Positions 42,246-59,422 of a DNA stretch of 64,000 nt are shown here, one piece after another. Numbering within the stretch: the stretch's first letter is position 1; every line of letters starts with the position of its first letter. Location of the stretch: positions 32,001 to 96,000 of IMG/VR virus record IMGVR_UViG_3300031823_000001; one strand, written 5' to 3'. The position numbers were made by a program, and so were the translations under genes. Origin of the DNA: a virus. The notes under the pieces are model-generated. The model was not told the origin of the DNA. It saw nothing but the letters and a program-made list of their open reading frames with translations, and made no database searches.

Positions 42246-42565
42246 GATTCCTCCTGGCCGGCGGCGAACCGGGACCTGATCCTGGTGCGGATCTCCCGCG
42301 AATCCATTACCTGCTGCCCGGCTTCCCGCCAGGTGACAGGGACGGCCCCGGCCTTTATGGCGGCGAGGCGCTTGGACTCGGTGACGTCGTAGTGCTGCAT
42401 GGGCCAGGGCTTGTCCTGGAACCAGGAGCGGTGCAGCCCGATCTTCGCGGCGAGGGCGTGCAGTTCCTCGATGTCGTCGTCGGGCCCGACGGTGAGGTGG
42501 GACCAGCGGGCGGTGATGCGGCCGACGGTGGCCTTCTGCCGCCAGTCGTCTACGTAGACGGTCAT
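42242..42565 (-). CDS. DUF4031 family protein
   Basis: MTVYVD...WSHL...EELHA.A..IGL.RSWFQ....HYDVT..KR. Confidence 0.8.
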   Translation of the reverse strand: MTVYVDDWRQKATVGRITARWSHLTVGPDDDIEELHALAAKIGLHRSWFQDKPWPMQHYDVTESKRLAAIKAGAVPVTWREAGQQVMDSREIRTRIRSRFAAGQEES

Positions 42566-43440
42566 GATTCCTCCTGGTCGGTGACGTGGGCGTAGGAACG
42601 GCGGCTGAGGATATTGCCGAGGGCGGCTTCCTTGATGCCGAAGCGCCCGGCTAGAACGGAGCGCTTCATTCCCTCGGCCCCGAGCCGCCGGATCTCGCGG
42701 ATCTGCTCGTCCGTGAACCGCGCATCGCTGCGGCGCGAGCGTGCCTTCGGCATGTCCCGGCAGATGATCGAGATGTTCGAGTGGTGAACGCCGAACTGCA
42801 ACCCGAGTTCGTGGATGCTCTTCCCCTCGGCTCGCAGGCGCCTGATCTCTGCGGCTTGAGGTGCGGTGAGCTTCCCGCCTGACATGCGGCGCTCGTGGGG
42901 AGCGATCGGCGGAGGATCGGTGATCCATCCCCAGCTCTTGCCCGAGAGCGCGAGCTGGACAGTGTCGAGCTTGCGGTCCAGTTCGGCGGCGATCTTCGGC
43001 GCACTCAGGCCGCCCCGGTAGAGAGTGCGGGCCTTGCGCACTAGGTCGGGACTCAGTGCGTCCTGGCCGCCGATCCCGAGAGACCGGCGCCTGATCGCCT
43101 TGTCGCGGTTATTGTCCGCGACGCTCCCGTCCCTGATGTGCAGCGGACGGCAGCAGGGCGGGTTGTCGCAGTCATGCCTTCCGATCACCGGCATGTACCC
43201 GTGCACCAGGTAGAAGGCGACTCTCTGGGCGTTGACTGTTCCCTTGCGTCCGGTGAGCGGGTTGATCATGCTGACGGCCCCGTAGTTCCCTCTCGGGCGC
43301 TTCCGGGTGGCTCTGAGGAACTCCCAGCAGGACTCGTCGTCGTCGATGATGTTGACCTTCGGCCAAAACTGCCTGTCGGGACCGGGAAGAGTTGTGAGCT
43401 GGCCGTCTCGGAGGACCTGCTCGTACTCGATGATGTTCAC
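42562..43440 (-). CDS. HNH homing endonuclease with C-terminal HTH repeats
   Basis: FW.KV...CWE; RH.CDNP.CC.P.H...G...DN..D; three HTH-like repeats; TAGTAT -10, leaderless GTG. Confidence 0.88.
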   Translation of the reverse strand: MNIIEYEQVLRDGQLTTLPGPDRQFWPKVNIIDDDESCWEFLRATRKRPRGNYGAVSMINPLTGRKGTVNAQRVAFYLVHGYMPVIGRHDCDNPPCCRPLHIRDGSVADNNRDKAIRRRSLGIGGQDALSPDLVRKARTLYRGGLSAPKIAAELDRKLDTVQLALSGKSWGWITDPPPIAPHERRMSGGKLTAPQAAEIRRLRAEGKSIHELGLQFGVHHSNISIICRDMPKARSRRSDARFTDEQIREIRRLGAEGMKRSVLAGRFGIKEAALGNILSRRSYAHVTDQEES

Positions 43441-43499
43441 GAACCCAATACTATCTTGCGAGAGATGGTGTGGCGCGAGGAACGTCCAGAGAGGGGGTG

Positions 43500-44059
43500 G
43501 TGACCACGGCCTCCACGCAAGCGAGAGTAGTCGGATCAGGCTACACTGTGCTGTCATACAACAGCCAGCCTATCGCTTACTGTGAGGGCTGGTTAATTGT
43601 GAGGATAGTGGGCAACGCGCTTTCAGCGATGTCGGCCAGCCTTATCAATTCATCCAGCCCATTGGTGCCGAGCACCCGGTCGAGATTGCCACGTCGCGCG
43701 TGATCTCCGGCGGCACGGTGATGATCACCATCCGCGAGTTGTGGAACCAGCCCGTGTGGTGGCAGCTCGCCGGGCTGACCGGCACCTGGGACATGGTGGA
43801 CATCTTCACCGCCCTGGCGGCCAACCCTAACTACGTCACCGCGTCGATGATTATCAAGCCGCCCGGTACGGAAAGCAACTCGGGTTCCTGGCGAGGCAAG
43901 GTATACCAGAACGTGACAGTCGTAGACATTAACGACGGCGAAACGGTTACCGTCGGGGCTCTGGCGGTCACTAAGGGTATTACCTTCGCGTACACCCACT
44001 ACGTGCCCCTCAACAGCAACCAGTACGGCGCTGGCCTGCTGGGAACCGCCACCGCCTGA
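43500..44059 (+). CDS. tail tube protein, split by an 8-nt insert (43593-43600); about 183 aa if bypassed
   Basis: frame 1 ...IAYCEGW then TTA; second frame EDSGQRAFSDVGQPYQFIQP...RELWN; follows sheath. Confidence 0.8.
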
Positions 44060-44159
44060 TCCCGGGACAATGCCAGCATTACCAAGGAACCTGGTATTCC
44101 TTCTGGTGCCGATGATAAAATTCCTCTTTGCCTGCCAAGGTAAAGCACAAGGAGGAAAA

Positions 44160-44495
44160 GTGGCGCAGAAGGTACAAGTTGACCAGGTAAGCGACCTGGA
44201 CGGGGTGCCGGCCGACGAGACAGTGAAGTTCTCCCTGGACACCACCGACTACGAGATCGACCTGTCCGCTGTCCAGGCGCAGGAGATGCGCGCCGGGCTG
44301 GCCCCGTTCGTGACGCATGCCCGGAAGCGGCCCGGCCGCCCGCGACGCGGCAAGCGGCGGCCCAGCCGCCCCGACCTGCCGGACATCCGCACGTACGCCA
44401 GGGCCAGGGGATACGACATCAACGAGCGGGGCCGCGTCCCCACCCAGATCATCGACGAGTACGACGCGCTGAAGGGCACCGACGCCGCCCGGTAA
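44160..44495 (+). CDS. lsr2: Lsr2 nucleoid-associated protein
   Basis: MAQKV....DLDG..ADETV.F.LD..YEIDLS; IR..AR..G..INERGRVP. Confidence 0.92.
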   Translation: MAQKVQVDQVSDLDGVPADETVKFSLDTTDYEIDLSAVQAQEMRAGLAPFVTHARKRPGRPRRGKRRPSRPDLPDIRTYARARGYDINERGRVPTQIIDEYDALKGTDAAR

Positions 44496-44551
44496 CCCGC
44501 AGGGCCGCCCCCGGAAGGTAAGAACCCAGATTCTCTTCCGGAGGAGGACCA

Positions 44552-44878
44552 TTGACCACTCCCGCCCCGCCGGCGGCGCCCGTCATCACCACGGACAAGG
44601 CCAGCTACAGCCCCGGCGACCCCATCACCGTGACGGTGGAGTACACCGACCCTGCCAACCCCGGCACCGCCGTGACGATCACCGCGACTGTCACCAACTC
44701 TGACGGCACGACCGCCAGCGGCACGGCCCAGGTCACGGTGGGCGCGACACCCGCCAACCCGCTGCCCGTCTCGGTCACCGACTCGCTCGGCGATGCCTAC
44801 ACCCAGACGAGCAACGAGGCCGGCACCGCCGTGTTCGCCGGCACCATCGGGACCCCTCCGGCCGCCCCGGCAGCGTGA
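44552..44878 (+). CDS. small Ig-like virion protein
   Basis: TTG start with GGAGGAGG; TDKASYSPGD.ITVTV motif. Confidence 0.7.
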   Translation: MTTPAPPAAPVITTDKASYSPGDPITVTVEYTDPANPGTAVTITATVTNSDGTTASGTAQVTVGATPANPLPVSVTDSLGDAYTQTSNEAGTAVFAGTIGTPPAAPAA

Positions 44879-44985
44879 TCCTCACCATCGACGTCACAGT
44901 CACCGGCCCGGACGGCTCCACGGCCTCCGGGTCGGTGACCGTTGACGTCACCGACCCGGGAACAGCGGCGGAGGAGCAGGCGTGA
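44875..44985 (+). CDS. 36-aa peptide resembling part of the upstream Ig-like gene
   Basis: GTGA coupling at both ends; VT.PDGSTASG.V.V. Confidence 0.45.
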   Translation: MILTIDVTVTGPDGSTASGSVTVDVTDPGTAAEEQA

Positions 44986-45164
44986 ACGTCAACGTGAACA
45001 CCAGCGTGGGCGCGGACAAGTCCGTGACCTGCGACATCGTGGTTGACGGCCGCCAGGTGGCCGTTACCTTCGCTGAGGGCGAGATCACCTTCGCTGTCGC
45101 TGCCCCGGGCGGCGACATCACTTTCCAGGTGCCCGAGTCCGTGGTTGCCCTGGAGCCCGCGTGA
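44982..45164 (+). CDS. hypothetical protein
   Basis: GGAGGAG SD; coupled both ends. Confidence 0.6.
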   Translation: MNVNVNTSVGADKSVTCDIVVDGRQVAVTFAEGEITFAVAAPGGDITFQVPESVVALEPA

Positions 45165-45703
45165 CCGAGGCATTCCCGGGCGAGGAGACCCCGGCCGGCG
45201 ACGGCCCGACCGACTCGCCCCTGGAGCTGCATGCCGAGCCCCACGACGAGGCCGCCTGGCGCGAGGACTTCACCGGGCTCCTCGTCATGGGCGCGCTGCG
45301 CGGCTGGTTCGAGTGGTGCGGGCACCGCATCGCCATCAAGACCCTCACCACCGAGGAGGAGCTGCTGGTCGCGCAGCTCACCCGCGAGTACGAGGGGGGC
45401 ATCGGCGGGACCAAGGCCTACGCCACGGCGCTGGCCGGGCTGTGCGTGGAGGCGGTGGACCGCCAGCCGATGCCGGTCCCTCTCGGCGAGCACCCCGGCC
45501 AGCCGAACAAGTGGGCGCTGGAGCGGTTCAACTACGCGCTCAGGTGGTACCCGCCGACCATCGACGCGATCTTCGACGCCTACCTCCGGCTGGAGGCCAG
45601 GCAGCGGGACGTCATGGCGGGACTGGGAAAATCCTCGGCCCAGGGGGATGCGACCCCTGGGCTGAGCGCCAGATCCGCCTCGCCGAGCGACGCGGGCTCC
45701 TGA
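45161..45703 (+). CDS. tail assembly chaperone (short form)
   Basis: position before tape measure; slippery site near end. Confidence 0.8.
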   Translation: MTEAFPGEETPAGDGPTDSPLELHAEPHDEAAWREDFTGLLVMGALRGWFEWCGHRIAIKTLTTEEELLVAQLTREYEGGIGGTKAYATALAGLCVEAVDRQPMPVPLGEHPGQPNKWALERFNYALRWYPPTIDAIFDAYLRLEARQRDVMAGLGKSSAQGDATPGLSARSASPSDAGS

Positions 45704-46071
45704 CCGGCCGGTCCCTCAACGTCGTCCAGGAGGCCTGCCTGGACGTCCTGTACTTCCTCGACGGCCTCGCCGAGCGCAGGCGCCGCGAGGACATGATCTT
45801 GTCGGCCGCCGTCTCCGGCGGGGTGATCACCCCCGTTCAGGCGTGGCCGGAGTTCTTCGGAATCGACCGGGGCGACCCGGATGTCTTCCCGTCCGCCGGG
45901 ACCGACAACAGCGGCTTCGCCCTGGAGCGCGCCACCCCCGAGTCGTTCGCGGCCGACATGGCCGCCCTGGTGGCGTCGAGCAGGCAGGTGGTGCTGCGCG
46001 AGGGTTCCCAGCAGCCCGTTCCCGCGCCGCAGGAGCAGCACCAGTACGTCCCCGATCCCGAGTGGACCTGA
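45161..46071 (+). CDS. tail assembly chaperone, -1 frameshift product
   Basis: in-frame G GGA AAA at 45625-45631; -1 frame open to 46071 (ILGPGGCDPWAERQIRLAE...). Confidence 0.8.
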
Positions 46072-46142
46072 GAATTATCCGGAAATCTCGTGGGGTAAAC
46101 GCTATCCGCTCACGTATGAGTCTTCAGGAGGACTCATAGAAC

Positions 46143-46307
46143 ATGAACTGCACCCACGAAGAATGCGAGCCTTACAGCTCCTGCCAGGCGCTCACCGACT
46201 GGGAGCGCAGGATCGAGTTCCGCTTCCGCCAGCGGACGGGCCTGCCCGCTGATGATCTCGCCACCGACCCGGTCGCCTGGTACGAGGGGGCGACCGAAAC
46301 GGGATAG
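46143..46307 (+). CDS. hypothetical protein (54 aa)
   Basis: AGGAGG upstream; ATG...TAG. Confidence 0.5.
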   Translation: MNCTHEECEPYSSCQALTDWERRIEFRFRQRTGLPADDLATDPVAWYEGATETG

Positions 46308-46337
46308 CCGCCGCCCCGGAAGCACGGGAGGCAGAAC

Positions 46338-48749
46338 ATGACGATTCCGTGGCCGGGGGGCCTCGACCGCTCAGTGAACCAGCCCGACCCTGGCCAGCAG
46401 CAGGTCACCCAGGGCCTGAACGCCGTCGTCACCCAGCTCCGCAGCATGAACCAGGCGATCCAGGCGCAGACGTCGATGATGCAGCGGACCATCAACGCCT
46501 CTTCGCGCTTCCAGTCCCCGGGGCAGCAGGCCGCTCACTCGGCCGGCCAGCCGCACATGCGCCAGGACGTCACCCAGGCCCTGGTGGCGGGCGGCGGCAC
46601 CCTGTCGGGGGCCCAGCTCTCCCAGGTCTCCCCGATGAGCGCGATGACCTCCCTGGAGTCGCTCAAGGCATTCGGCGCGCAGCAGCTCGGCCAGTGGATG
46701 GCCGGGATGCCGCTGTACGAGTCGGGCAGCACCCCCGCCGGCATGCCGACCTCGTTCACCCTGCCGCAGCAGTCGAACTACTGGTCCGGCGGCGTCCCGG
46801 GCGACAGCACCCCGGCGGGACCCGAGTACATGGGCCGCCACGCGAGCGGCTACTCCGGTTCTCACCGTGCCTCGCCTGCTGCTCCTGTCGGCGGTAGCGG
46901 AGGCAGCGCAGGAGGCCAGGGCGGCGGCGGAGGAGGCGCAGGAGGTCCTGCCGGGCCGGGCGGCGGCCCTCCTGCCGGAGGAGGCCACGGCGGAGGCGCC
47001 GGGGGCGGCGGAGGAAGCAGCTCCAACCTGAGCCTCCTCCAGCGCGTCGGCGTCCAGGTGGCCGCCTCGGCGGGCGGTCCCGGCACCATCACCAACGCGC
47101 TGCGCAACGTCCCCGGCGTCGGCCTGGCCATGGACGCGGTCAACTCGGTCGCCAACACCTACATCGCGCAGCGCGAGGCCGGCCGGGTCTACCAGAACGT
47201 GGAGGGCGGTTCCAACCTCGGCGCGCAGACCGAGCGGCTGCACGCACTGGCCTACGAGGCGTCCATGTACGGCCGGATGCCGTCCGGCGCCGCCGCGCAG
47301 GCGTTCGGCCAGGTCACCGCGATGGGCTTCAACCAGGCGGCGCAGAACGAGGGCGGCCAGCTCCAGAACCGCCAGTCGGCCCTCAACTTCGCCTACCACA
47401 ACTACACGGCGACCGGCATGGACGTGAACGAGTCCATGGGGTTCCTCGCCTCGGCCAGCCAGAACCCGACAGTCAACCTCAACCAGCTCTCCACCGCGCT
47501 GAACAACCTGTCTACCTCCGCCGGGAAAGCCGGCGTCAACGCCGAGCAGGCCCGGCAGAGCTTCCAGAGCTACTTCAACGCCGCCCTCGGCCAGGGGGCA
47601 GGCAACAGCTCGACCGGCATCGCCCAGGGCATCGCGGGCATGCAGGCGTCGGGAGGCAAGACAATGGCCGGGGTGAACTTCTCCGGGCTGCTGTCCTCGC
47701 AGAACCAGTACCTGCTGTCCGGCCAGAGCGGCCTGTCGGTGCCGCAGCTCCAGCAGATCCAGCGGACCAATCCCGCGCAGTACAACCAGCTCCTGTCCGG
47801 GCAGAGCCTGTCGGAACTCACTTCCAGCGGGCTGATGAGCAGCCAGGAGCAGCAGGGGCTCAAGCAGATGATCTCCCAGGCGGGCGGGACCTCCGCGCTC
47901 CAGGCGAACCCGGACCTCTACAGCCAGATCGTCGGCCAGTTCCTCAACAAGTACCAGACCAGCGGGAACATCAACGAGAACGTCTGGACCGGCTACATCA
48001 ACAGCATGACCGGCTCGAACATGAACAACAACCAGGCCATGCAGTGGATCGTGCAGCAGGTGGCCGGGGTCAACGAGTCGTCTTCCAACGGCAGCCTCGC
48101 CACCAGCCCGACCACCAACGGCGCGAGCGTGCCCGCGAACAAGCTGGGCAGCGCACCGACGGGCAAGGGCGGCCTGGCGCTGCCGTCGCAGCCGGGACTG
48201 ACCGGCCAGCTTTTCCTCGGCGACAAGTCCAAGACGTGGCAGCAGGTCCTCCAGGGCGACAACTCGGCGGCGGCGGCCCCGTACCTGGCGGCCGAGAAGC
48301 AGAGCGGGCAGCGGAACCCGGTGCTGGAGTCGCTGCTCCAGAACACCAGCTCAAGCGACCAGGTGTCCGTGCAGACCGCGACCGGCACCCGGGTCATGAG
48401 CATGGCCGACGCGATGAAGTACTACCCGAACGAACTCCAGGCCGGGAACGTCAACTTCTACGGTTCGAACGGCCAGTCGCTCGGCAACACCGCCGCGCTG
48501 ACCGGCGGCCTGGTCAACACGGGGGCGAATACCGCCGGGGAGGTCCAGCAGAAGGCCGGATCTACTCTGGGCAGCACCCTGTCGGCGTGGCAGAAGGCGC
48601 ACCCGGCGTCCGGCGGGCAGATCACGAACATCGTGGACCTGTCCACCGAGGCGAAGCAGCTCCTGAAGCTGCTGCCGTCTACCAGCAACGCGGCGGCGGC
48701 CACCAGCACCGTCCCTGCGAACACCTACGCCTCGCAGGCGAGCCGCTGA
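46338..48749 (+). CDS. tape measure protein
   Basis: 803 aa A/Q/G/S-rich; follows chaperone frameshift pair. Confidence 0.8.
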   Translation: MTIPWPGGLDRSVNQPDPGQQQVTQGLNAVVTQLRSMNQAIQAQTSMMQRTINASSRFQSPGQQAAHSAGQPHMRQDVTQALVAGGGTLSGAQLSQVSPMSAMTSLESLKAFGAQQLGQWMAGMPLYESGSTPAGMPTSFTLPQQSNYWSGGVPGDSTPAGPEYMGRHASGYSGSHRASPAAPVGGSGGSAGGQGGGGGGAGGPAGPGGGPPAGGGHGGGAGGGGGSSSNLSLLQRVGVQVAASAGGPGTITNALRNVPGVGLAMDAVNSVANTYIAQREAGRVYQNVEGGSNLGAQTERLHALAYEASMYGRMPSGAAAQAFGQVTAMGFNQAAQNEGGQLQNRQSALNFAYHNYTATGMDVNESMGFLASASQNPTVNLNQLSTALNNLSTSAGKAGVNAEQARQSFQSYFNAALGQGAGNSSTGIAQGIAGMQASGGKTMAGVNFSGLLSSQNQYLLSGQSGLSVPQLQQIQRTNPAQYNQLLSGQSLSELTSSGLMSSQEQQGLKQMISQAGGTSALQANPDLYSQIVGQFLNKYQTSGNINENVWTGYINSMTGSNMNNNQAMQWIVQQVAGVNESSSNGSLATSPTTNGASVPANKLGSAPTGKGGLALPSQPGLTGQLFLGDKSKTWQQVLQGDNSAAAAPYLAAEKQSGQRNPVLESLLQNTSSSDQVSVQTATGTRVMSMADAMKYYPNELQAGNVNFYGSNGQSLGNTAALTGGLVNTGANTAGEVQQKAGSTLGSTLSAWQKAHPASGGQITNIVDLSTEAKQLLKLLPSTSNAAAATSTVPANTYASQASR

Positions 48750-48881
48750 CCACGGACTTCACCTGAATCCCGGGCGCAGCGCGTTACCCTCGTGTTACTT
48801 TCCAGGCTTGTACGCCGGCTAGGCTCCGGCCCCGCTCGCGGGACCCCGGCCCGAGGCCGTCCCTGCGAGGTCTGGAGCCCG

Positions 48882-49535
48882 ATGCGCACCGTCCCGCCGA
48901 GCCAGCGCCAGGTCTACTTCGCGGGGGCGCTGACCGCCGCCGCCGTAGCCTTCGTCTCCCCGCCCCTCCACCTGCCGTCGTCTGCCCCGGGCGCCGCCCT
49001 CGACGCCGTCGTGGTGAAACCGTCCCGCACCGCAGAGCAGCCCGTCCTGACCGGGCCGCAGGTGTTCGCCTCCTACCGCGCCCGGCACCGCCAGACGGCG
49101 CCCCGGGTCCAGGTCCCGGCGCCCCGCGTGTCGGACGACCTCGAATCGGCTGCGGTCATCCCCTCCCCGCCGCCCCCGCAGCCCTCCCAGGCCGCTCAGC
49201 CCGCGAGCACCGCCCAGGCGTCTCCTTACCCGTCCTACTCCGACCTGCCCTCGCAGAGCGGCGCATACGGCTCGCCAGGGGCGCAGAGCGGTTCCTCCGG
49301 CAGCACCAGCTCGTTCCAGGCGTGCGTCATCGCCCGCGAGTCCGGCGGCAACCCCCAGGTCATGAACGCCTCCGGGCACTACGGCCTCTACCAGTTCAGC
49401 GCTTCGACCTGGGCGGAGTACGGCGGCAACCCCGCCGACTTCGGCAATGCCTCCGCAGCGGAGCAGAACCAGGTATTCGCCAACGCCATGGCGGCCGGCG
49501 GCGAGTCGAACTGGGCGCCGTACGACGGCTGCTAG
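48882..49535 (+). CDS. Rpf-like lytic transglycosylase with N-terminal hydrophobic segment
   Basis: C...RESGGN....N.SG.YGLYQF...TW...GG...AS..EQ......W motif. Confidence 0.85.
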   Translation: MRTVPPSQRQVYFAGALTAAAVAFVSPPLHLPSSAPGAALDAVVVKPSRTAEQPVLTGPQVFASYRARHRQTAPRVQVPAPRVSDDLESAAVIPSPPPPQPSQAAQPASTAQASPYPSYSDLPSQSGAYGSPGAQSGSSGSTSSFQACVIARESGGNPQVMNASGHYGLYQFSASTWAEYGGNPADFGNASAAEQNQVFANAMAAGGESNWAPYDGC

Positions 49536-50032
49536 CGGCGGGGGAGGCCCGCCGCGATCCACGCATCGAGCCGCCTCTTCCCCTCCGGCCCGGCTGGCGG
49601 CAGGGACTGAAGCGCCTCCCAGTCGAACGGGAACGGCCAGCCGGGGTCACCCGACGGCAGCTCCAGCGGACGCGGCGGCTTCTGGTTCCTGCTCCTGATC
49701 GCCGCCCGCACCGGGTCGCTCCACGACGAGTCTGCCTGGTCACGGGAGAAGTCGGTGGCCCCGAGGACTACAAGGCCGAGGGGCGGGCTTCCGGCTACGC
49801 GAAACGGCCCGGTCCCGTCCCGGTACCTGCTCGGCCACGCACCGAGCCTGACAGTAGGGGACGGCACGGTCTGCGAACCGTGCACCCGGTTGTCCCACAG
49901 CCGGGTGCGCTTGCCCTTCTTGCCCGGCCGCCAGTTTCTGCCCATCATCAGGCTCGCGCCCGGGTGCTGCGGGCACGGACCCTTTGCGGCCCAGCCGCAC
50001 TCGGTGCACAGGTACTTCGGGCGGGCGCTCAC
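49532..50032 (-). CDS. hypothetical protein with N-terminal Zn ribbon
   Basis: CTEC...CPQH. Confidence 0.55.
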   Translation of the reverse strand: MSARPKYLCTECGWAAKGPCPQHPGASLMMGRNWRPGKKGKRTRLWDNRVHGSQTVPSPTVRLGAWPSRYRDGTGPFRVAGSPPLGLVVLGATDFSRDQADSSWSDPVRAAIRSRNQKPPRPLELPSGDPGWPFPFDWEALQSLPPAGPEGKRRLDAWIAAGLPRR

Positions 50033-50034
50033 TG

Positions 50035-50316
50035 CTAGCTCCTCACTGCCCGGAAGACGCGCTCGCGGCGGCCGTCCGGGTGCACGAGGTACACCCGGTC
50101 CTGGATGCTGTAGGTGCCCTGGCCGCCGCTGCTCGCGGTCGGCTGAGTACGCTCCAGGTCTTCCAGTCGCCTCTGCGCGTCGAGGAGGGCCTCCTGCGGG
50201 CTGGCGTACTCCGGCTTCATCCCGTCCAGGGTGCTGCGCCCGTCCACCACGTTGACGTCTCCGAGCGGGTAGTCCTCCTCAGAGAACGCGTCGTAGCCTG
50301 CCAGCTTCCAGGTCAC
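50035..50316 (-). CDS. hypothetical protein (MTWKLAGYDAFS...)
   Basis: GTGA coupling. Confidence 0.65.
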   Translation of the reverse strand: MTWKLAGYDAFSEEDYPLGDVNVVDGRSTLDGMKPEYASPQEALLDAQRRLEDLERTQPTASSGGQGTYSIQDRVYLVHPDGRRERVFRAVRS

Positions 50317-50672: not shown

Positions 50673-50740
50673 GCTGAGATTATAGCTTTTCTTGATAATC
50701 GCCCGCTACCCCTTAACCCCCGGAAGCAGCGGAGGTGCTC

Positions 50741-51349: not shown

Positions 51350-51383
51350 CTCCGCCCCCGGAAGCACCGGAGGAGGATCAGCG

Positions 51384-51626
51384 ATGCCGTTCAATACCCC
51401 GCCCGCCTGGGGCGCAGACGTCCCGATCTCGATGCCGCTCCCCGCCGCCGAGCCGGTCATGGTCGATATGTACGGCTTCGGGATGACCCAGTACCGGCTG
51501 GTGCACTCCCTGTCCCAGGCGGACTACGAGTCGCTCGCCGTCCCCGTGTACGCCCCGGCCAGCCCGACCGGCGCCGTGGTGGCCGGCGATGCGGGCCTTG
51601 ACGCCACCGGGAAGTCGTCGGGCTGA
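51384..51626 (+). CDS. small tail-associated protein
   Basis: GGAGGAGG SD; coupled to next gene. Confidence 0.65.
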   Translation: MPFNTPPAWGADVPISMPLPAAEPVMVDMYGFGMTQYRLVHSLSQADYESLAVPVYAPASPTGAVVAGDAGLDATGKSSG

Positions 51627-52384
51627 TGGCGCGCCAGGGGCTGAACGGGACCCTCACCTACACCGACGGGACCACGGCGTACACCTACCAGGTCCGGGTC
51701 GGACAGGTCGGCTACGGGGTGGACATGATCTACGCCGAGGACCAGGCGCGCACCCAGCGGAGCTTCTACCCGCACCGCACCGCCAACCAGCAGTTCTCCG
51801 TCCAGGTGCTGCTGCTGAACTGGGACGAGCGCAACGACCTGATGACCTGGATGTCGAGCTACGCCCAGTACGCGCTCGACCCGACTGCCGTCCGCACTGT
51901 CTTCCCGTTCATGCAGGTGGTCTGCCCGGTGCGGAACTTCAACCAGCAGGGGATGCCGCTGAAGGGATACGAGTGGGGGGCGCACTCCGGGATGATGGCG
52001 TTCTCCCCGGTGTTCACCTTCGAGGCGGCCCAGTCGCCGGGGCAGAACTCCCTCTCGGTCGTCACCAGCTCCGTGGTCAACGCGGCCAGCGCCTTCGCCA
52101 GCGACCCGGCCGTCCAGTACTTCTACCCGTTCTCCACGCAGCTTTCGGCCAGCCAGGTCCCGCAGGACTACGGCCAGGTGGTCCCGTCTCCTGGCACCGT
52201 GCCGCCCGCGCAGACCGCTCCCGGACCGGACAACCCGCCCGCCGGGGTGAGCCAGTCGCAGTGGACCAACGCCCTCGGCGCGGTCGGCGTGGTCAACCCC
52301 GGCACCGTCGCCGGGCCGGCTTACCCGCCTGCCGGGAGCGCCGCCGATGCGGCCACCTCCCCGGGCATCTCCCTGGGGGGCTGA
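51626..52384 (+). CDS. baseplate-associated protein
   Basis: TGATG coupling; GC3-rich. Confidence 0.65.
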   Translation: MARQGLNGTLTYTDGTTAYTYQVRVGQVGYGVDMIYAEDQARTQRSFYPHRTANQQFSVQVLLLNWDERNDLMTWMSSYAQYALDPTAVRTVFPFMQVVCPVRNFNQQGMPLKGYEWGAHSGMMAFSPVFTFEAAQSPGQNSLSVVTSSVVNAASAFASDPAVQYFYPFSTQLSASQVPQDYGQVVPSPGTVPPAQTAPGPDNPPAGVSQSQWTNALGAVGVVNPGTVAGPAYPPAGSAADAATSPGISLGG

Positions 52385-52386
52385 CC

Positions 52387-55011
52387 GTGGCGGTGTTCAT
52401 GTACGCGCCGGGGATCGCGATCTACATCTCGACGCAGAATAACGGGATCATCGATGTCAGCAACGACGTCACCCAGGGGACCCTGGTGCGCCGCAGCGAC
52501 GGGGTCTCGACGTTCTCCTTCAACCTCCAGAACCCGTTCCGCAAGTACCAGGGGATCTTCACCCCGAACGACCGGATCATCGTGATGATGAAGCGGGTGT
52601 CCTGGGTCCGGGTTTTCACCGGCTACCTGAACCAGGTGCCGCTGGTCACGGCGTGGCCGTCAACGGTGCAGCTCACAGCCTCCTGCTCCCTCAAGCGGCT
52701 CCAGTACTGGTTCTGGGACCCGGGCCTCCCCGCCTCGCAGAACATGGTCGCCCAGGCTATGGCGACCGCAGCCAACCCCGACGACGGCGGCACCTCGGCG
52801 GCCGTGCTCGCGATCCTCCAGAACGTGGTCGGCTGGCCCTCCAGCAAGGTCCACATCGCCGGGGTGCCGCAGGGCTGGTCCGCCTGGGCCTACAAGATCG
52901 CCCAGCAGGTGGAGGGGGAGCTGTCCTCGGCGGACACCCTGGCACAGCAGCTTTACGCTGCGCTCGGGGCGGGCGGAACCGTCGGCGGGGTGACCGGCGG
53001 CGGGGTGACCGTCCCGTCGAACGCGCTGGCCGCCGGGACCTACGCCGGGCAGTCGCTGACCACCGCGCAGGTGCAGACGGCCACTCTCATCTACAACACC
53101 GTGATCCAGATGGGCGGGTCCGTCAACGACGCGATCGTCGCGATCATGACCGCCTACCAGGAGAGCCGGCTGGGTGCCAACACCGGCTCCAGCCCCAGCG
53201 CCATCGGGCTGTTCCAGCAGAACCCGGCGGACGGGTGGGGCACCGCCGCGCAGCTCGCCAACAACACCACGGCGACCCAGGCGTTCGCGAAAGTGCTCCT
53301 CGGCATCACCAACAGGTCCACGATGACCGACGCCCAGCAGGCGCAGGCGGTGCAGCGGTCGGCCGACGGCTCGCTGTACGCCCAGTGGCAGACGATGGCC
53401 ACCGACCTGGTGGACTCGCTGACGACCACCGGGGCCTCCTCGGTGGCGAACACCCCGGCTGCCGCCGCCACCGCCGCGACCAAGACCGGGAAGGCGTCCG
53501 GGGCGCAGCTCCTCGGGACGGCGCTGAACCTGGTGGACACCTACTCGATTCCCTACCAGGAGGGAAACGACTCGGCCTACAACGCGGCCGTCCCTACCGT
53601 GCTGGACTGCTCGTCGTTCACCCAGTGGGTCTACTACCACACGCTCGGCTCCATCGGCTCGATGCCGCGCACCTCCCAGGAGCAGTCCGCCTGGGCCACG
53701 GAGATCCCCGTCGCCCAGGCGCTCAACACCCCGGGCGCGCTGCTGTTCTACGGCACCCCCGGCACCTCCTCCCACGTGGAGATCTCCTGCGGCACCGGCA
53801 GCAGCAGCGTCGGGGCGCATACCACCGGCACCTATGCCGGGGTGGTCGGCGCCGGGGCCTACAGCAACGCCAACCCCTACGGGTTCGCCTTCGGCGGCCT
53901 CGCCCCGAACATCGACTACTCGGCGACGCCGGGCACTTCCCCCGCCTACGCCTCGGTGCCGGCCAACGGGGCGGCCCTGGCGGCGGGATCGCCCGCCAGC
54001 ACCAACCCGCTGGCCGCGACCACCCCGGGCGCGGAGCTGGCCGCCGAGGGGCTCCAGGTCAACCCGTCGTCCTCCGAGCCCTGGTACAACCCGACGAACG
54101 AGTTCGACAAGCTCTTCGGCAGCTCCCCGTGGATTCCGACGTTCGACACCGACGCGCAGCTCACCGCGCAGATCCTCACCGGCCCCCGCGCGCTGATGGC
54201 CGACAGCCCGCTGCTGCCGTACCTGAAGAACCTGTTCGCCTCGTGCATGCGCTCGTACTGCTCGGCGCCGAACGGCGACCTGATGGCCTGGTTCCCGGAT
54301 TTCTACGGCATCTGGGGCACGGCGGCGATCATGCAGATCGAGTCGATCGAGCTTCAGGACTTCACCGTCTACTGGGACGACGAGCAGCTCATCACGCACC
54401 AGTTCGTGGTGGGCGCGCCGCAGAACCAGATCGACCTCGGGTCAGGAACGGTGTCCAGCGTCTCGATCACCGCCCCGAGCGGCACCCAGTCGATCCCCCA
54501 GGACCTGCTGCTGGCGATGTCAACCACCGGGATCGCCAGCATCGACTTCCCTGCCATCATGTACGCGCTGTTCGGCCTGGACGCCACCTCCACGGCAGCG
54601 AAGTCGTTCACCCAGTACGTCTACAACCGCTTCGGCGCGCGGCCCGACATGGAGCAGCTCCCGGGACTGGCGGGACCGTCGGGGGAGTTCTTCGGGGCGC
54701 TTTTCCTGTTCATGCGGAGCTGGGCCTACCAGTACAACGCAGATATCCCGATGACTTTCATGCCTGAGCTGTGGCCTGGAATGCTTATCCAGGTCCCTGA
54801 TTTCAGCTTCCAGGCCTACGTCACCACGGTGACCCATACCTTTCAGATGGGCGAGGGCGGCTTCTTCGACACCACCGTCAATATCGCCGCCCCGTCCCGC
54901 ATCCCGGGCAGCGGCAACGATTCCGGCGGCCAGCTCATCGGCCTCCCGGTAGCCGGCGGACTGGTCTCCCCGGGAAGCACGCCGGCCCCGGCGGCAGGGA
55001 CGGGCGGCTGA
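52387..55011 (+). CDS. baseplate hub protein with lysozyme-like and NlpC/P60 peptidoglycan hydrolase domains
   Basis: AYQES.L....GLFQQ...GWG; LDCSSFTQWVY...PRTS.EQ...HVEI. Confidence 0.82.
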   Translation: MAVFMYAPGIAIYISTQNNGIIDVSNDVTQGTLVRRSDGVSTFSFNLQNPFRKYQGIFTPNDRIIVMMKRVSWVRVFTGYLNQVPLVTAWPSTVQLTASCSLKRLQYWFWDPGLPASQNMVAQAMATAANPDDGGTSAAVLAILQNVVGWPSSKVHIAGVPQGWSAWAYKIAQQVEGELSSADTLAQQLYAALGAGGTVGGVTGGGVTVPSNALAAGTYAGQSLTTAQVQTATLIYNTVIQMGGSVNDAIVAIMTAYQESRLGANTGSSPSAIGLFQQNPADGWGTAAQLANNTTATQAFAKVLLGITNRSTMTDAQQAQAVQRSADGSLYAQWQTMATDLVDSLTTTGASSVANTPAAAATAATKTGKASGAQLLGTALNLVDTYSIPYQEGNDSAYNAAVPTVLDCSSFTQWVYYHTLGSIGSMPRTSQEQSAWATEIPVAQALNTPGALLFYGTPGTSSHVEISCGTGSSSVGAHTTGTYAGVVGAGAYSNANPYGFAFGGLAPNIDYSATPGTSPAYASVPANGAALAAGSPASTNPLAATTPGAELAAEGLQVNPSSSEPWYNPTNEFDKLFGSSPWIPTFDTDAQLTAQILTGPRALMADSPLLPYLKNLFASCMRSYCSAPNGDLMAWFPDFYGIWGTAAIMQIESIELQDFTVYWDDEQLITHQFVVGAPQNQIDLGSGTVSSVSITAPSGTQSIPQDLLLAMSTTGIASIDFPAIMYALFGLDATSTAAKSFTQYVYNRFGARPDMEQLPGLAGPSGEFFGALFLFMRSWAYQYNADIPMTFMPELWPGMLIQVPDFSFQAYVTTVTHTFQMGEGGFFDTTVNIAAPSRIPGSGNDSGGQLIGLPVAGGLVSPGSTPAPAAGTGG

Positions 55012-56576
55012 TGGCCGCGCCGCGCCCGGCCCTCAACGGCGCCACCACCTCCGTCGGCTTCACCACCAAGCTGGTCACCATCCAGTCAGTCAGCCCGGAC
55101 GGCAAGACGGCGGTCTGCGTAGACCGGCAGAATACCCAGGTCAGCGTCCCCATGCTGGTGCAGCGCAGTAAGGGAGTTCTGCCCGCTGCCGGGGAAACGT
55201 GGCTGGTCACCCAGGATCTCGGCCAGTGGACGTTCGCGGCGGTCGTCGCGCAGTCGCCGGCTCAGTTCCAGACCGTCGCCCAGTCCAGCGGCGTCTACAG
55301 CGGGGGGACTGTCCCGGGCAACCCGACTGTCGGCGAGCTGTGGGTGAACTCCGCGCTGGGCAACATCGTCTCGGTGTGGAACGGCACCGACTGGGAGCCC
55401 CTCCAGTTCGGCGGCACCGCCATCCAGCCGGGCAGCCTGACCTCGGAGCAGCTTTCCGCCGAGGCGAACATCGCCGCCTCCCAGGTGAACTTCACCGCCT
55501 CCGACATCGGCGGGCGCACCACCACGATCTCGGCTACCGCGCCGCCGGACCCGTCGTTCGGCGACCTGTGGTACGACGCGGAGAACGGCTACCAGCTCAA
55601 CCAGTGGGACGGCACCGAGTGGATTCCCTACCAGTGGGGAACCCAGGCTATCGCCGCCAACTCGGTTACCACCGAACTGCTCGCCGCCGAGGCGGTCACC
55701 GCCGAGCAGATGGCCGCCGGGATCATCTACGGCGGGATCATCGACGGCACCATCGTGGACGCTGCGACGTTCATCGGCAGCACGTTCGAGGGCACCGACT
55801 TCATCCTCAACAGCGTCGGCGGGTACTGGTACACCACCACTCCGGGCGCCGGCGACCTGGTAGTGAGCATCACCGCGCAGGCGGGGACCGACCCGGAGGG
55901 GAACACCACCGAAGGCGGCGTCACCATCTACCAGGGCGGCGCCCGCCTCCAGCTCCACGTCAACACCTCTGTCAGCGCCCCCGCGATCGAGATGCCGACC
56001 GGCGCGGCGTCGGAATCCGGGGGCGCCGCCATCTACACCTGGGTCCCGAACCCGGGGGCGCCTTCCGAGGGCCTGATCTCCTACTGGCAGGGACCGGGGT
56101 CGTCTTTCGACGGCAAGTCAGTCGCCATCCAGTTGACCAGCTCTAACGCTGACGGCTCGAAGCTCGCCCAGGGCGGCCTCGTCATAGACGGCGGGATCGT
56201 GGCCTACTGGGACGTTAACGGCCTTTACTCCACGGCCACGTGGGCGAACATGAGCCTTTCGAACGGCTGGTCGGTGAGCGGCACCGGGTTCGCCGAGTAC
56301 AAGCTGGGACTGGACAGGATGGTCCACGTCCGGTTCGGCGGCCTGGGTCCCGGCACCACGGCCAACGGCACCACGATCTGGACGCCGCCGTCGGGCCTCG
56401 TCCCGACTTTCACCGGCACCATGAGCTTCCCCATCGCTGTCGGGTACTCGGGGACCGCGCCTGCCTACGGCTCCACCCCTGAGGTTGTCTTCAGGGGCGG
56501 CAGCATGCAGTGCTTCAACATAAGCACCGGGACGGTCGCCAACATCGCGGGGACGTTCTCGTACCCCCTGGACTGA
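55011..56576 (+). CDS. baseplate spike / minor tail protein
   Basis: N-terminal OB-like segment (LPAAGETWLV); two P..GxLW...W.GT.W repeats. Confidence 0.65.
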   Translation: MAAPRPALNGATTSVGFTTKLVTIQSVSPDGKTAVCVDRQNTQVSVPMLVQRSKGVLPAAGETWLVTQDLGQWTFAAVVAQSPAQFQTVAQSSGVYSGGTVPGNPTVGELWVNSALGNIVSVWNGTDWEPLQFGGTAIQPGSLTSEQLSAEANIAASQVNFTASDIGGRTTTISATAPPDPSFGDLWYDAENGYQLNQWDGTEWIPYQWGTQAIAANSVTTELLAAEAVTAEQMAAGIIYGGIIDGTIVDAATFIGSTFEGTDFILNSVGGYWYTTTPGAGDLVVSITAQAGTDPEGNTTEGGVTIYQGGARLQLHVNTSVSAPAIEMPTGAASESGGAAIYTWVPNPGAPSEGLISYWQGPGSSFDGKSVAIQLTSSNADGSKLAQGGLVIDGGIVAYWDVNGLYSTATWANMSLSNGWSVSGTGFAEYKLGLDRMVHVRFGGLGPGTTANGTTIWTPPSGLVPTFTGTMSFPIAVGYSGTAPAYGSTPEVVFRGGSMQCFNISTGTVANIAGTFSYPLD

Positions 56577-56595
56577 CCGCCCGGAAGAGGGGGAG

Positions 56596-57036
56596 GTGGT
56601 CGTGAGAGATCTCCAGCTAGCCGGCGGGGACCTGGTCGCGTCCGGGCGAGGGTTCGCGACTGTGACCGGGGCCGGCTACGTCCGTCAGCGGGTCGCCTGC
56701 GCCCTGTCCGAGCCGTACGGCAGCGACCCGTACAACCCGGGGTGGGGGTCGGCCCTGACCGGGTGGCTCGGCGCGCCGCAGACCTCAAGCACCCAGGCGA
56801 TGGTCGCCTCCGAGGCGCAGCGGGTGCTCAGCGGGCTGATGGCCGCTCAGCAGCTCGTGCTCAAGTCGGCGGCGATGACCAACACCCGGAGCCAGCTCAA
56901 CAGCGCGGACGTCATCGCCTCGGTCAACAGCGTCACCGCCTCGGCCGGGTCCCGGCCCGACGCGGTGCAGGTCACCGTCACCCTCACCACCATGGGCGGC
57001 CAGCAGGTCCAGGCATCGCGGACGGTCAGCGCCTGA
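56596..57036 (+). CDS. baseplate wedge protein (gp25/W-like)
   Basis: L.E.YGSDPY.P.WGS.L motif; precedes baseplate J. Confidence 0.8.
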   Translation: MVVRDLQLAGGDLVASGRGFATVTGAGYVRQRVACALSEPYGSDPYNPGWGSALTGWLGAPQTSSTQAMVASEAQRVLSGLMAAQQLVLKSAAMTNTRSQLNSADVIASVNSVTASAGSRPDAVQVTVTLTTMGGQQVQASRTVSA

Positions 57037-57038
57037 TG

Positions 57039-57551
57039 CTAGGACGGCAGCGGGTTGAGGTAGGCGTGCTCTCCGAACAGCTCCAGGGCAGCCTCGTTGT
57101 AGGCGCGGGCGCAGGCTTCCTGGCTGTCCGAGTGCAGGATGGTCCGAGTCTTTCCTTTTATGGTGATGCGGGCGCGCCACTTATTCATCTGCTTGTCCCA
57201 TCCGACCCCCTTGTACTTAGAGGTGTGCCGCGTAAGGTCCGGTCTTCTGTTCTTGTCATTGTGCAGGCCGTCGCGCAGGTTGCGGCGGCGGTTGTCCAGC
57301 GTGTCATGGAAGATGTGATCCGTGCGCGGGTATCCGGTGATCATCGAGTGCATGGAGATGATCTTGTAACCTCCGCCGATCTGACGGATGGCGGTGCGAG
57401 CGTACGGCCCGTTGGTACGTCCGTTGCGCTTGATTTCAAGCACGTGTCACCTGTGCCTGATGACCAGCTCGTAATCTTCGACGTCGATTCGTGCGACTCT
57501 CCCGGCTGCCTTCTTGCCGGACAGGGGAACCTCGATATGCGCCGTCGCCAA
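57039..57551 (-). pseudogene. HNH-AP2 homing endonuclease with internal TGA (57447-57449)
   Basis: GGAGG plus TTG start; ...DYELVIRHR*HV...; DH...DTLDNRR.NLR; AP2 SKYKGV.W....KW.ARI...ARAYN.AA..LFGEHA.LN. Confidence 0.8.
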
Positions 57552-57594
57552 TGGTGGGCCTCCGTGCTCATCGTCTCTAAGGGGGTGATGCACC

Positions 57595-59422
57595 TTGGCA
57601 AGCCAGTCTGATATTTCATCTCAGATCATCTCGGTCCTGGCGGCTAGCGAACCTGACCTTGACACCACCGTCGGTTCCGTGACCCGCAAGATCATCGACG
57701 CAGTTGCAGCTTCGATCTCAACTGCTTCGCTGGACCAGCAGATGTTGGCTTATCAATTAGCAATACGATATCAACTCGATGACCGGCGCCGCGCTCGACT
57801 CTTTCGTCCAGCTTTTCGGGATGTCCCGCTACCCGGCCACCCGGGCGGTCGGCACGGTTTCCTTCACCCGGGGCACCGCTGTCGATACCGCGACGGTCCC
57901 CTCCGGCCTCCAGATCGCCTCCGAAGACGGGTCGGTGGTAGCCGTCACCCTGACCGCCGTGATTCTCGACCCGGCGGCACTGAGCGGCACCGCGCCCGTC
58001 CAGGTGGTCACCGCCGGCCCGCAGGGCAACGTCGCCACCGGGACTCTCACACAGGTCCAGAGCCCGGTCGCCGAGATCACCGCCTGCACCAACGTCACCC
58101 CGCTGACCGGGGGGGCCAACCAGGAGACCGACACCCAGCTCCAGGCCCGGTGGAAGGCGACCGTCTTCAAGTCCATGGCCGGGACCAGCCAGATGTTCAT
58201 CGGCATCGCGACCAACGACCCGGACTGCACCGCCGCCAACGTGGTGGACGGGGCGACGAGGTTCCGCGAGCAGGTCCAGATCGCCAGCGGCGCGGCCACC
58301 TCCACGGTCTCCGACGCCCAGTACACCTACCCGTCGGGCCAGGTGGTCGGCCGGGACATCGACAACGGGGACGTCGCCGCGCCGGGCACCCAGTACATCT
58401 GGGACTACACAGCCGACCCGCCCTCGATCTCTGTCATCGACGCGAGCTACTTCCCCAACGCCGAGCTGGTTGACCTGTCGTTCCTCTACATGGACACCTA
58501 CTCGCGCAATTCGGCCGCCGCAGGGATCTACAGCCGGGTGGACGTCTGGTGCGCCGGCAGCCGCCCGGCGGCGGCTTCTGCGACGGTCAACTACCACAAC
58601 GCCACCACGTTCTCCAGCACCACCACCTCAAACTGGTACACGGGGGGCTTCGTGCGGCCCGACGGCACCGCGCCGGCCACGGGGAACGTCTTCGTCGCGC
58701 TGCCCTGGGGGCCGATCGTCACCCTGCCGCCGGTTCTGGTAGTCAACGGCGTCACCTACGGCCTGGCCACCCCCGTCTACCCGCTCGGCTCGGTGTCCGG
58801 CGGGGTCACCTACGCCTACCAGATCGTGCACCGCACCGGGGCGTTCGGCTGGAGCCCGTACTCTGACTTCGGCCTTGAGTGGGACGCTGCCTACCAGCCG
58901 CCCTCAGGGTCCGCGATCACCCTGAGCGAGAACTACACCTACAACAACGTCCCGGCCGCCATCCAGGCGGACCTGGAGAACTGGCGGCTGGCCGGCCAGG
59001 ACGTCCTCGCCCACCAGGGCATCCCGGTTTCCCTCCAGTTCTCCCTCGCGGTCATCTTCGACCCGAGCGTCACCCAGTCGGTCACCCAGACCTCGATCAA
59101 CACCAGCCTCCAGACCTATCTGTCGCAGCTCGGGTTCAACTCGCGGATCTACCCCTCCAGCGTCATCCAGGCAGTGGAGAGCACCCCGGGCGTCATCGCC
59201 TCCCGGTTCCTCACCGGGGCCGACTACCCCGCCTGGAACTCTGCGGCCCCCGACAACTTCAATGTCGGCATCCAGCAGGTCTACGAGGGCGTGGTGGCAC
59301 AGAGCTACGTGGACAGCGGGGGCAACCCGGTAGACGTCGCCCTCGGTGCGGCCCAGCTCCCGACGTTCGGCGGCGCGGTCGTCGTGCCGAAGGCTGGTAA
59401 CACCATGGGGCCGTTCAGCTAG
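57595..59422 (+). CDS. baseplate J-like protein, split by a 7-nt insert (57757-57763); about 606 aa if bypassed
   Basis: frame 1 ...DLDTTVGSVTRKIID...MLAYQ then TTA; second frame YDINSMTGAALD..VQLFG..R..AT.A.G.V.F; GG...ETD..L..R. Confidence 0.85.

Follow-up and report, generated by a model that had tools for sequence, protein, structure and literature searches.

How could a virus build a working tail from two tail genes that are each out of frame near the 5′ end? The question is raised by IMG/VR virus record IMGVR_UViG_3300031823_000001, a complete 161,740-bp virus genome with direct terminal repeats, of which bases 32001-96000 were analysed (64,000 nucleotides (nt), called the window here; coordinates refer to the window unless stated otherwise). 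In the window, the genes for the tail tube and for baseplate J (J below) are both broken by short inserts that open with TTA. To our knowledge, translational bypassing is among the rarest of decoding modes, the accepted natural cases being T4 gene 60 and its relatives, Magnusiomyces mitochondria and, tentatively, the phiHau3 terminase. On the evidence given below, both inserts are probably translational coding gaps (we put the probability at about 0.7), at which hopping of a UUA-stalled peptidyl-tRNA is joined to a homing cassette resembling that of gene 60 and mobA.

Two tail genes interrupted by TTA-led inserts

The two genes are divided as follows.

43497-43592, + strand: tube coding segment 1, 32 codons ending CEGW; GTG start at 43497; aligns with the N-termini of intact homologues
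43593-43600, + strand: putative coding gap 1, TTAATTGT, composed of a rare TTA, 2 nt and the putative landing triplet TGT; absent in the intact homologues examined
43601-44059, + strand: tube coding segment 2, EDSGQRAF.. to the stop codon at 44057-59; phrog_2756, E 6e-24, profile positions 39-151 only
57595-57756, + strand: J coding segment 1, 54 codons ending LAYQ; TTG start; matches the N-termini of 606-amino-acid (aa) homologues
57757-57763, + strand: putative coding gap 2, TTAGCAA, composed of TTA, 1 nt and the putative landing triplet CAA, which is the same as the take-off codon; absent in 9 relatives
57764-59422, + strand: J coding segment 2; Pfam Baseplate_J, E 2e-26; phrog_6

Frame 0 of the tube gene runs from GTG 43497 to ..PIAYCEGW, with TGG at 43590-92 as the take-off codon, and the protein resumes in a different frame at GAG 43601 as EDSGQRAFSD... 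Full-length tube homologues (172-177 aa, up to 92% identical) read CEGWEDSGQRAF unbroken, CEGW|EDSGQ is continuous in the gapless tube loci and proteins examined (more than 40 distinct alleles), and segment 2 is 92% identical to the intact homologue P0001. At this junction E27, E30 and D31 are invariant among homologues and G28 is nearly so, while the take-off residue W29 varies to V or I. In J, frame 1 leads from TTG 57595 to ..QQMLAYQ, the take-off codon being CAA at 57754-56; the protein resumes at TAC 57764 as YDINSMTGAALD.. and stops at 59420-22. Its homologues, mostly of 606 aa and up to 98% identical, read LAYQYDINS unbroken, LAYQ|YDINS is continuous in 9 loci, and segment 2 is 98% identical to the intact P0121. 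Intact homologues therefore join the flanks exactly, at the very positions where a preliminary description of the window had placed the two inserts when it found both tail genes out of frame near their 5′ ends. That description had also made each insert a 7-8 nt sequence that opens with an in-frame TTA and whose last triplet repeats, exactly or nearly, the codon before the insert, and this too agrees with the alignments: the J insert ends in CAA after CAA, and the tube insert ends in TGT, which matches the take-off TGG at two of three bases. Within the J gap a TAG is present in the +1 frame.

The smaller gene is identified as tail tube by its position after the sheath gene, by phrog_2756 and by Rhodococcus phage E3 gp112, whose annotation is tail tube; the AlphaFold2 model computed on the alignment of intact tube homologues is poor (predicted local distance difference test score, pLDDT, of 43).

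The breaks are real and not errors. Logan contigs, from a second assembly of the probable source run, equal the window over 43200-57900 with zero differences at a depth of ~30x, and the same or variant inserts are present in contigs of other samples. A 151-nt contig from a metatranscriptome library of another study is identical over 43541-43691, insert included, which is compatible with the insert being kept in RNA, although DNA carry-over into that library is possible; removal from RNA had been named beforehand as an outcome that would tell against bypassing.

Independent translation of the downstream parts, as split genes, was considered and rejected. In the tube frame the 33 codons past the junction include no start codon (first GTG at 43700), and in J the ATG at 57779 has no ribosome-binding site and corresponds to a conserved internal Met.

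Gap alleles in related phages

Breaks in relatives were found without reference to TTA, either from truncated products of open reading frames (ORFs) in a protein collection or from the spacing of conserved motifs. Altogether 24 gap alleles were recovered, with 17 distinct gap sequences at 9 codon junctions (7 in tube, 2 in J); 15 of these sequences and seven of these sites, all from related phages, are additional to the two of the window. The tube junctions all fall within the first 46 codons (after S11, Y13, T14, C26, W29, Q45 and F46), those in J follow T52 and Q54, and gap lengths are 2, 4, 5, 7, 8, 14, 15 and 16 nt. In every one of the 24 alleles the 0-frame codon after the last sense codon is TTA. 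Since TTA is so rare in the genome (6 of 26,348 codons in its confident genes, ~0.2 per 1000) and yet opens all gap alleles at 9 sites, chance is excluded. It had been suggested that two independent instances argue against chance; that conclusion stands, but the phenomenon is far wider than two, extending to 9 sites and gaps of 2-16 nt.

The end of the gap is also constrained. At 7 of the 9 junctions the landing triplet repeats the take-off codon, is synonymous with it or equals it in the first two bases (binomial P = 1.2e-7, for a chance rate of 1/16 per site). Written as take-off codon, gap and resume codon, the alleles at W29 of the tube are TGG-TTAATGC-GAG, TGG-TTAATTGT-GAG, TGG-TTAATTGG-GAG and TGG-TTACCTGG-GAG, L010 and L041 having TGG at both take-off and landing. 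The J alleles are CAA-TTAGCAA-TAC, CAA-TTAGCAG-TAC, CAA-TTAAGCAG-TAC and CAG-TTAATAAG-TAC. Across these alleles the spacer is 1-2 bases and the landing triplet always adjoins the resume codon. Gaps of 7 and of 8 nt occur at one and the same junction (TTAATGC as against TTAATTGT, TTAATTGG and TTACCTGG in tube; TTAGCAR as against TTAAGCAG in J), which means that the frame change required differs between alleles at one junction and that a single direction of frameshifting cannot serve both. In the 7-nt gaps the +1 frame meets TAA or TAG at once. In loci L003 and L032 the gaps are 15 nt long and in frame, contain a stop codon and lie between identical Ser codons (TCT or TCC), and L009, L031, L073 and L080 each have two gaps whose summed length is a multiple of three, by which the frame is restored. 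The 2-nt case has the sequence UUU UUA UC, on which tRNA-Phe could re-pair on UUU.

As a separate observation, gaps of 14 and 7 nt in L031:1350-1420 flank a three-codon segment, GGC TAT ACC (GYT); if this segment is translated, two hops would be made within 30 nt.

Purifying selection acts on both halves of J. In the 53 codons upstream of the gap, the window differs from L026 at 16 synonymous and 2 non-synonymous positions; between the window and L027 the proportions of synonymous (pS) and non-synonymous (pN) differences in the upstream segment are 0.76 and 0.10, and comparison of the four gap-bearing alleles that are most alike gives a pN/pS of 0.04-0.14 for segment 1. Genome-wide scans for further TTA gaps in the 162-kb genome gave nothing convincing, but these scans are insensitive, since most of them also missed the known tube site, where the upstream segment is short and AT-rich. 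One match, at genome position 14612, was rejected as antisense to a real gene.

Linkage of the gaps to HNH genes and recoded tracts

Next to each interrupted gene lies a divergent endonuclease gene, and the adjoining J sequence is recoded.

42562-43557, − strand: HNH1, an intact free-standing HNH_3 endonuclease gene with a C-terminal helix-turn-helix (HTH), divergent from tube; Pfam HNH_3, HTH_38, HTH_7; PHROG endonuclease/HNH, E 1e-15
57039-57551, − strand: HNH2, an HNH-AP2 endonuclease gene, divergent from J; phrog_99 HNH, E 2e-25; Pfam AP2
57595-57800, + strand: recoded 5′ tract of J; drop in identity to L028; GC content 54-60%

The Pfam HNH_3 match of HNH1 (19.4 bits) is under the curated cut-off of 24.8 and is backed by the PHROG matches at E 1e-15; the true start of HNH1 may be internal to the called ORF. 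HNH2 has an in-frame TGA at 57447-49 (− strand) where, by translation and alignment, L026 has TGG (Trp), and is probably an inactive, decaying homing endonuclease gene that looks freshly inactivated. Both genes are absent in most relatives. The preliminary description had placed both inserts in AT-rich tracts beside divergent HNH genes, and this is what is found, with a GC content of 54-60% as against ~69% for the genome and with HNH1 and HNH2 adjacent. For a third HNH gene (22755-23294, − strand), the upstream neighbour was inspected and no break was seen.

Co-occurrence of inserts and HNH genes had been proposed as a test and was examined in relatives. Tube loci were sampled by means of peptides encoded 3′ of the gaps, which leaves the sample unbiased towards gaps, and were combined with loci from viral contigs. 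Where the sheath-to-tube spacer is 18-197 nt, none of 37 distinct alleles has a gap; where it is 293-2130 nt, gaps are present in 12 of 18 (Fisher P 2.7e-7, computed with 11/18 before L003 was reclassified as gap-bearing). The short-spacer alleles are free of HNH genes, and in every case where the extra DNA ahead of tube could be assigned, it is an HNH gene or a remnant of one. The gap site can be predicted from the HNH clade: the clade of HNH1 (64-80% identical) pairs with the W29 gap, its 64% member (L010/L051) being a remnant; the clade of L003, L039, L031 and L032 pairs with the S11 gap; and the AP2-type HNH of L073 pairs with the Y13 and Q45 gaps. At J, all gap alleles are altered upstream: the window, L026 and L029 have an HNH gene there, L027 has a fragment of one, L024 a deletion remnant and L030 extra DNA that is unexplained. 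In 9 of 9 gapless alleles, by contrast, the baseplate gene abuts J.

The comparison with L028 resolves the J cassette further. The block 57037-57594, an insertion of ~560 nt with the HNH cassette, is absent in L028, which is ~96% identical in nucleotides on both sides. Over the next ~200 nt of J, with the gap inside, identity in 90-nt windows is 69-86% (59% in windows still carrying the gap columns of the cassette), as against 92-99% in the flanks. Gap, HNH gene and recoded tract, which L028 lacks, thus move as one block. These alignments support joint acquisition, as a block, of the HNH gene, ~200 nt of recoded J and the gap, and the J tract at 57595-57800 was probably co-converted and arrived with the HNH cassette. 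In the tube gene, identity to gapless alleles is 57-72% up to the gap and 82-91% beyond it. As judged from the alignments, this pattern of identity is the footprint of homing in which co-conversion was one-sided and stopped close to the gap, at the place expected for the nuclease target.

The gaps outlive their nucleases, as is indicated by the TGA of HNH2 and by L010 and L024, which have HNH remnants only (L024 keeps only ~170 nt of an HNH2-type gene). The link to HNH genes is accordingly historical and not obligate.

The divergent intergenic region of HNH1 and tube also contains a 15-nt motif, AATACTATCTTGCGA, at 43447-43461. It occurs in a single copy in the window and is identical in L002 despite ~16% divergence of the surrounding sequence; it may be a promoter or operator of the cassette.

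tRNA genes and RNA structure

28963-36798, − strand: array of 40 phage tRNA genes without tRNA-Leu(UAA); ARAGORN on the window and the whole genome; Rfam

The array includes tRNA-Trp(CCA), Gln(UUG) and Gln(CUG), and lacks tRNA-Tyr, Leu(UAA), Leu(UAG), Ser(UGA), Val(UAC) and Ala(UGC). The phage tRNAs read many rare A-ending codons (AGA, AAA, GAA, CAA, ACA, CCA, GGA and AUA), but not UUA. None of four relatives with 33-40 tRNAs has tRNA-Leu(UAA), so that all five genomes examined lack it, gap carriers or not, and offer no contrast; in the gap-bearing genome G001 no tRNA array was found within the stretch examined. The tRNA set of the phage is thus consistent with slow decoding of UUA being preserved, but it fails to tell phages with gaps from those without.

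For each of the four gaps of 14-16 nt (S11 site; L003:2528-2551, L032, L039 and L031) a hairpin is predicted whose 5′ arm contains the Gly-Ser take-off codons and whose loop contains or adjoins UUA. Its 3′ arm, which is non-coding and lies inside the gap, covaries with the synonymous Gly-Ser codons (GGCUCU/GGAGCC, GGCUCC/GGGAGC, GGUUCU/GGACCC and GGAUCU/AGAUCC), and hairpins with such compensating changes look like a maintained function. A stop codon stands directly 5′ of the landing triplet in three of the four. The 7-8 nt gaps of the window are too short to hold such a hairpin. Around the tube site (43586-43660) a long-range hairpin is predicted (z = -3.35), in which the take-off codon, the gap and the resume codons would pair with recoded CCUUAUCAAUU..CCAGCCC ~40 nt 3′; the recoding is common to L050 and L011, and L041 and L010 are without it, yet partial pairing is possible in them. 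Apart from this, it was noted that the gaps of L003 and L032 contain a Shine-Dalgarno (SD)-like GGAG.

Genome context and host

39820-41364, + strand: tail sheath gene; phrog_2839 tail sheath, E 4.6e-41
41372-42559, − strand: four small genes (phrog_3962, two unknowns and DUF4031/phrog_4887) between sheath and HNH1
44070-44495, directly 3′ of tube, in a low-GC stretch: gene for an Lsr2-like nucleoid-associated protein with dimerisation and DNA-binding domains

The genome has a GC content of 69%, 40 tRNA genes and an Lsr2 homologue. Its contractile-tail module is ordered sheath, tube, NlpC/P60-containing protein, baseplate protein (56596-57036), baseplate J and DUF7297. The sheath gene lies 18-30 nt 5′ of the tube gene in HNH-free relatives; in the window, the four small minus-strand genes extend the spacer to 2.1 kb.

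Soil metagenomes hold many relatives of the phage. Megablast with the tube region and the J region gave zero matches to isolated phages; by tblastn, the nearest isolated phages are those of Mycobacterium, Rhodococcus and Gordonia, at 27-39% aa identity. A host search that scanned genome contigs for relatives of the phage found none. The host is presumably a high-GC actinomycete, and the Lsr2 homologue indicates a host of that kind.

One further gene of the window, at 24700-24940 (− strand), has no ATG, GTG or TTG for 64 codons, its coding signal beginning directly after the stop codon of a 780-aa upstream gene. The sequence GGAGG, 5 nt and ATC (~24924) suggests an ATC start, from which the product would open IATYSTVLGLKLNDE and resemble the N-terminus of a tail fibre.

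Proposed mechanism and alternative explanations

The arrangement described above suggests the following course of events. On reaching UGG in tube or CAA in J, the last sense codon, the ribosome would meet UUA next, the least used codon of the phage and one that none of its own 40 tRNAs reads. With the A site empty, the peptidyl-tRNA would release its codon, move 7 or 8 nt forward and re-pair with a triplet that is cognate (CAA in J) or near-cognate (UGU in tube), after which decoding would resume at the next codon. The product would be full-length tube or J, with the same sequence as in insert-free relatives. We infer the hop, and an efficiency adequate to it, together with a scarcity of UUA-reading tRNA in the host, from the anatomy of the two sites and from their counterparts in relatives. 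As to origin, an HNH gene inserted just 5′ of a tail gene would have brought with it ~100-200 nt of recoded 5′ coding sequence ending at or just past the gap. The gap would most likely disrupt the target of the nuclease and leave the carrier genome immune to its own enzyme; the case for such protection is circumstantial and consists in the recoded tracts ending at the gaps. Once the HNH gene has decayed, the gap would persist because ribosomes tolerate it.

A number of points weigh against this reading. The phage is known from uncultured metagenomic sequence alone, starvation for UUA decoding in the host is assumed, and the support for the breaks comes from Logan contigs and not from raw reads. 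Hundreds of copies of the tube protein are required, and the spontaneous hops known so far have a low efficiency. The landing UGU in tube mismatches tRNA-Trp at the third position, and at two sites in relatives the landing match is poor (L009, TGT..TAC; L031, ACC..GCT). At the J site no stimulatory RNA structure is evident (z = -0.5), and if UUA is read there the 0 frame stays open for 238 more codons, giving a long out-of-frame product, which is wasteful. Six tube alleles with inserted DNA 5′ of the gene are gapless (L013, L042, L046, L060, L063 and L087), four of them carrying an HNH gene (L013, L060, L063 and L087), and L013 has recoding and a W-to-V change at the W29 junction instead of a gap. 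Several gap alleles have, conversely, lost the HNH gene. It follows that the gap is neither necessary to an active nuclease nor permanently tied to one.

Other explanations were weighed on the same evidence. In a conventional programmed frameshift the insert would be partly read, by a -1 or +2 shift in tube and a +1 shift in J, leaving one to three extra residues at the junction. A slow UUA in the A site is the classic trigger of a +1 shift, and the 2-nt case, UUU UUA UC, is formally a +2 slip on a U run and implies a continuum between slipping and hopping. Against this, the +1 frame in J and in the 7-nt tube alleles stops at TAG or TAA right after the take-off codon, a search for a slippery heptamer at both window sites found none, a junction that has 7-nt gaps in some alleles and 8-nt gaps in others would require opposite shifts, the 15-nt in-frame gaps hold stop codons, and the residues at the junction are conserved or nearly invariant in homologues. 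We regard a frameshift as very improbable. It is harder still to credit that the tube and J alleles are simply non-functional and complemented by co-infecting relatives, or that the contig is defective or mis-assembled. This would suit a metagenome-assembled genome that has no isolate, and relatives with intact genes do co-occur in soils. But the genome has terminal repeats and is complete, the second, 30x assembly and other samples show identical breaks, and random lesions would not all open with TTA and close with a matching codon; pairs of gaps that restore the frame, and purifying selection on the upstream fragment, would be unexpected as well.

The two remaining explanations accept the hop and differ over what the insert is for. 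The insert might be only a tolerated repair scar, left by error-prone end joining after HNH cleavage, of which only the hoppable insertions survived and which has no protective or regulatory function. Such scars would account for gaps being confined, in tube, to alleles with inserted sheath-tube DNA and being clustered within ~50 codons of the HNH insertion point, for recoded tracts that end at or just past the gaps, where the double-strand break is expected, and for the at least four HNH-bearing alleles that do without gaps. They sit less well with gap sites that follow HNH clades, with gaps that are retained while sequence and length drift (for example, through 8-16 synonymous J-segment changes among TTAGCAR alleles) and with compensating changes in the hairpins of the long gaps. 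A scar at the target would itself confer immunity, which makes the two ideas hard to separate; a scar without function is in our judgement doubtful. A regulatory sensor is the other possibility: bypass would succeed only while the UUA-reading tRNA of the host (bldA in Streptomyces) is scarce, and tail synthesis would be gated by host development. The same idea has been proposed for the phiHau3 terminase (PMC10732093); in the present lineage tRNA-Leu(UAA) is consistently missing though tRNAs for other rare A-ending codons are carried, and the Lsr2 homologue indicates an actinomycete host. However, that host is itself presumed, the distribution of gaps tracks HNH genes and not lifestyle, close relatives are gapless, and the by-product of a selfish element is a simpler reading. 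A sensor is unlikely.

Relation to known bypass systems

The closest parallel to the decoding event proposed here is in phage terminases. UUA-led inserts are known in the large terminase gene, two of 10 nt in Streptomyces phage phiHau3 and 7 nt in the StrepC.1 and S. catenulae prophages (Antonov et al. 2023, PMC10732093). According to the account given in that paper, bypass in phiHau3 was proposed in 2013 (Smith et al. 2013, via PMC10732093); partial support came in 2023 from E. coli, where a junction peptide was seen with UAA in place of UUA (PMC10732093). The features of the phiHau3 type are found at both window sites, namely a short insert whose two flanks are contiguous in gapless homologues, UUA first in the incoming frame and a landing triplet able to pair. 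As in phiHau3, the inserts are short, frame-breaking, UUA-led and absent from homologues, they lie in an essential late gene of a high-GC actinophage with the landing codon beside the resume codon, and hopping is proposed to be triggered when the A site stays vacant for want of a UUA-reading tRNA. Unlike phiHau3, the genes are those for tube and J, the carriers are ~160-kb myovirus-like phages of soil metagenomes with ~40 tRNAs, known from sequence alone, the alleles are numerous and spread over 9 sites, their gaps measuring 2-16 nt, and linkage to HNH genes and recoded tracts is tight. The text of PMC10732093 contains neither "HNH" nor "homing" and mentions no endonuclease link.

For the cassette, the parallel is with gene 60 of phage T4. 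The 50-nt bypass of gene 60 is said to lie within a mobA homing-endonuclease cassette (work attributed to Huang in 1988 and to Bonocora in 2011), and a bioRxiv text by Manning and Atkins reportedly deals with the same gene 60/mobA bypass cassette. In common with it, the window has coding gaps in essential genes beside a free-standing HNH-type endonuclease gene, co-inherited with it, and matched take-off and landing codons; the endonuclease gene is sporadic and adjacent, and the co-inheritance of the gap is imperfect. A counterpart of the gene 60 take-off stem-loop is seen in the 14-16-nt gaps of relatives only, where the take-off codon lies in the 5′ arm of the predicted hairpin. The differences are that the gaps are 7-8 nt (2-16 nt in relatives) and not 50 nt, that the trigger would be a rare sense codon and not UAG, that there is no sign of a nascent-peptide signal and no sequence kinship to the gene 60 element, and that the HNH gene occupies the upstream intergenic space and does not split the gene into two cistrons. 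The element works like the gene 60 cassette and is not a member of that group, whose defining features it lacks. With respect to other classes, the two window sites have no slippery motif, +1 stops and gaps of 7 and 8 nt, which sets them apart from +1 and -1 frameshift sites, the exception being the 2-nt U-run site of relatives. The catalytic motif and DNA-binding modules of HNH_3 (I-HmuI-like) enzymes are intact in HNH1, and HNH2 is interrupted by its TGA.

Two further comparisons are drawn from summaries in PMC10732093. Spontaneous hopping at hungry or stop codons in E. coli is described there as a low-level error seen in reporters (Weiss et al. 1987; Gallant & Lindsley; via PMC10732093). 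So summarised, it shares with the present proposal the re-pairing of peptidyl-tRNA at a nearby cognate codon, 2-16 nt further on, with a vacant A site, and its +2, +5 and +6 classes match the short gaps found here; in contrast to it, hopping here would be the sole route to two essential structural proteins and conserved across diverged phages. The byps of Magnusiomyces mitochondria are summarised as GC-rich hairpin elements of 27-55 nt in an AT-rich genome (Lang et al. 2014, via PMC10732093). They resemble the present gaps in being many short mobile inserts in essential genes, skipped by ribosomes, with several per gene (compare L009, L031, L073 and L080); as that source presents them, they differ in having no endonuclease partner and no UUA rule.

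Significance

The case unites two known kinds, the UUA-led hop and the cassette of the gene 60/mobA type. It lends strong comparative support to the proposal of UUA hopping and extends it to two abundant structural proteins, and the tie to homing endonucleases would explain why gaps arise and persist. The allelic series is akin to a ready-made mutagenesis of what a short hop needs, with gaps of 7 and 8 nt, perfect and mismatched landings, and hairpins or internal stops present or absent. For annotation, gene callers truncate the products to 119 aa (tube) and 547 aa (J) in public collections, with the consequence that essential phage genes are mis-annotated. It is an even bet whether the pattern is general, such that homing endonucleases of high-GC actinophages would routinely immunise essential target genes with UUA-initiated gaps of 2-16 nt that rely on hopping at hungry codons, with tail assembly made dependent, as a side effect, on scarcity of tRNA-Leu(UAA) in the host. 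If that is true, these phages would hold a natural, evolving series of bypasses, with graded lengths, matched and mismatched landings, hairpins, stop codons before the landing and three-codon segments between gaps.

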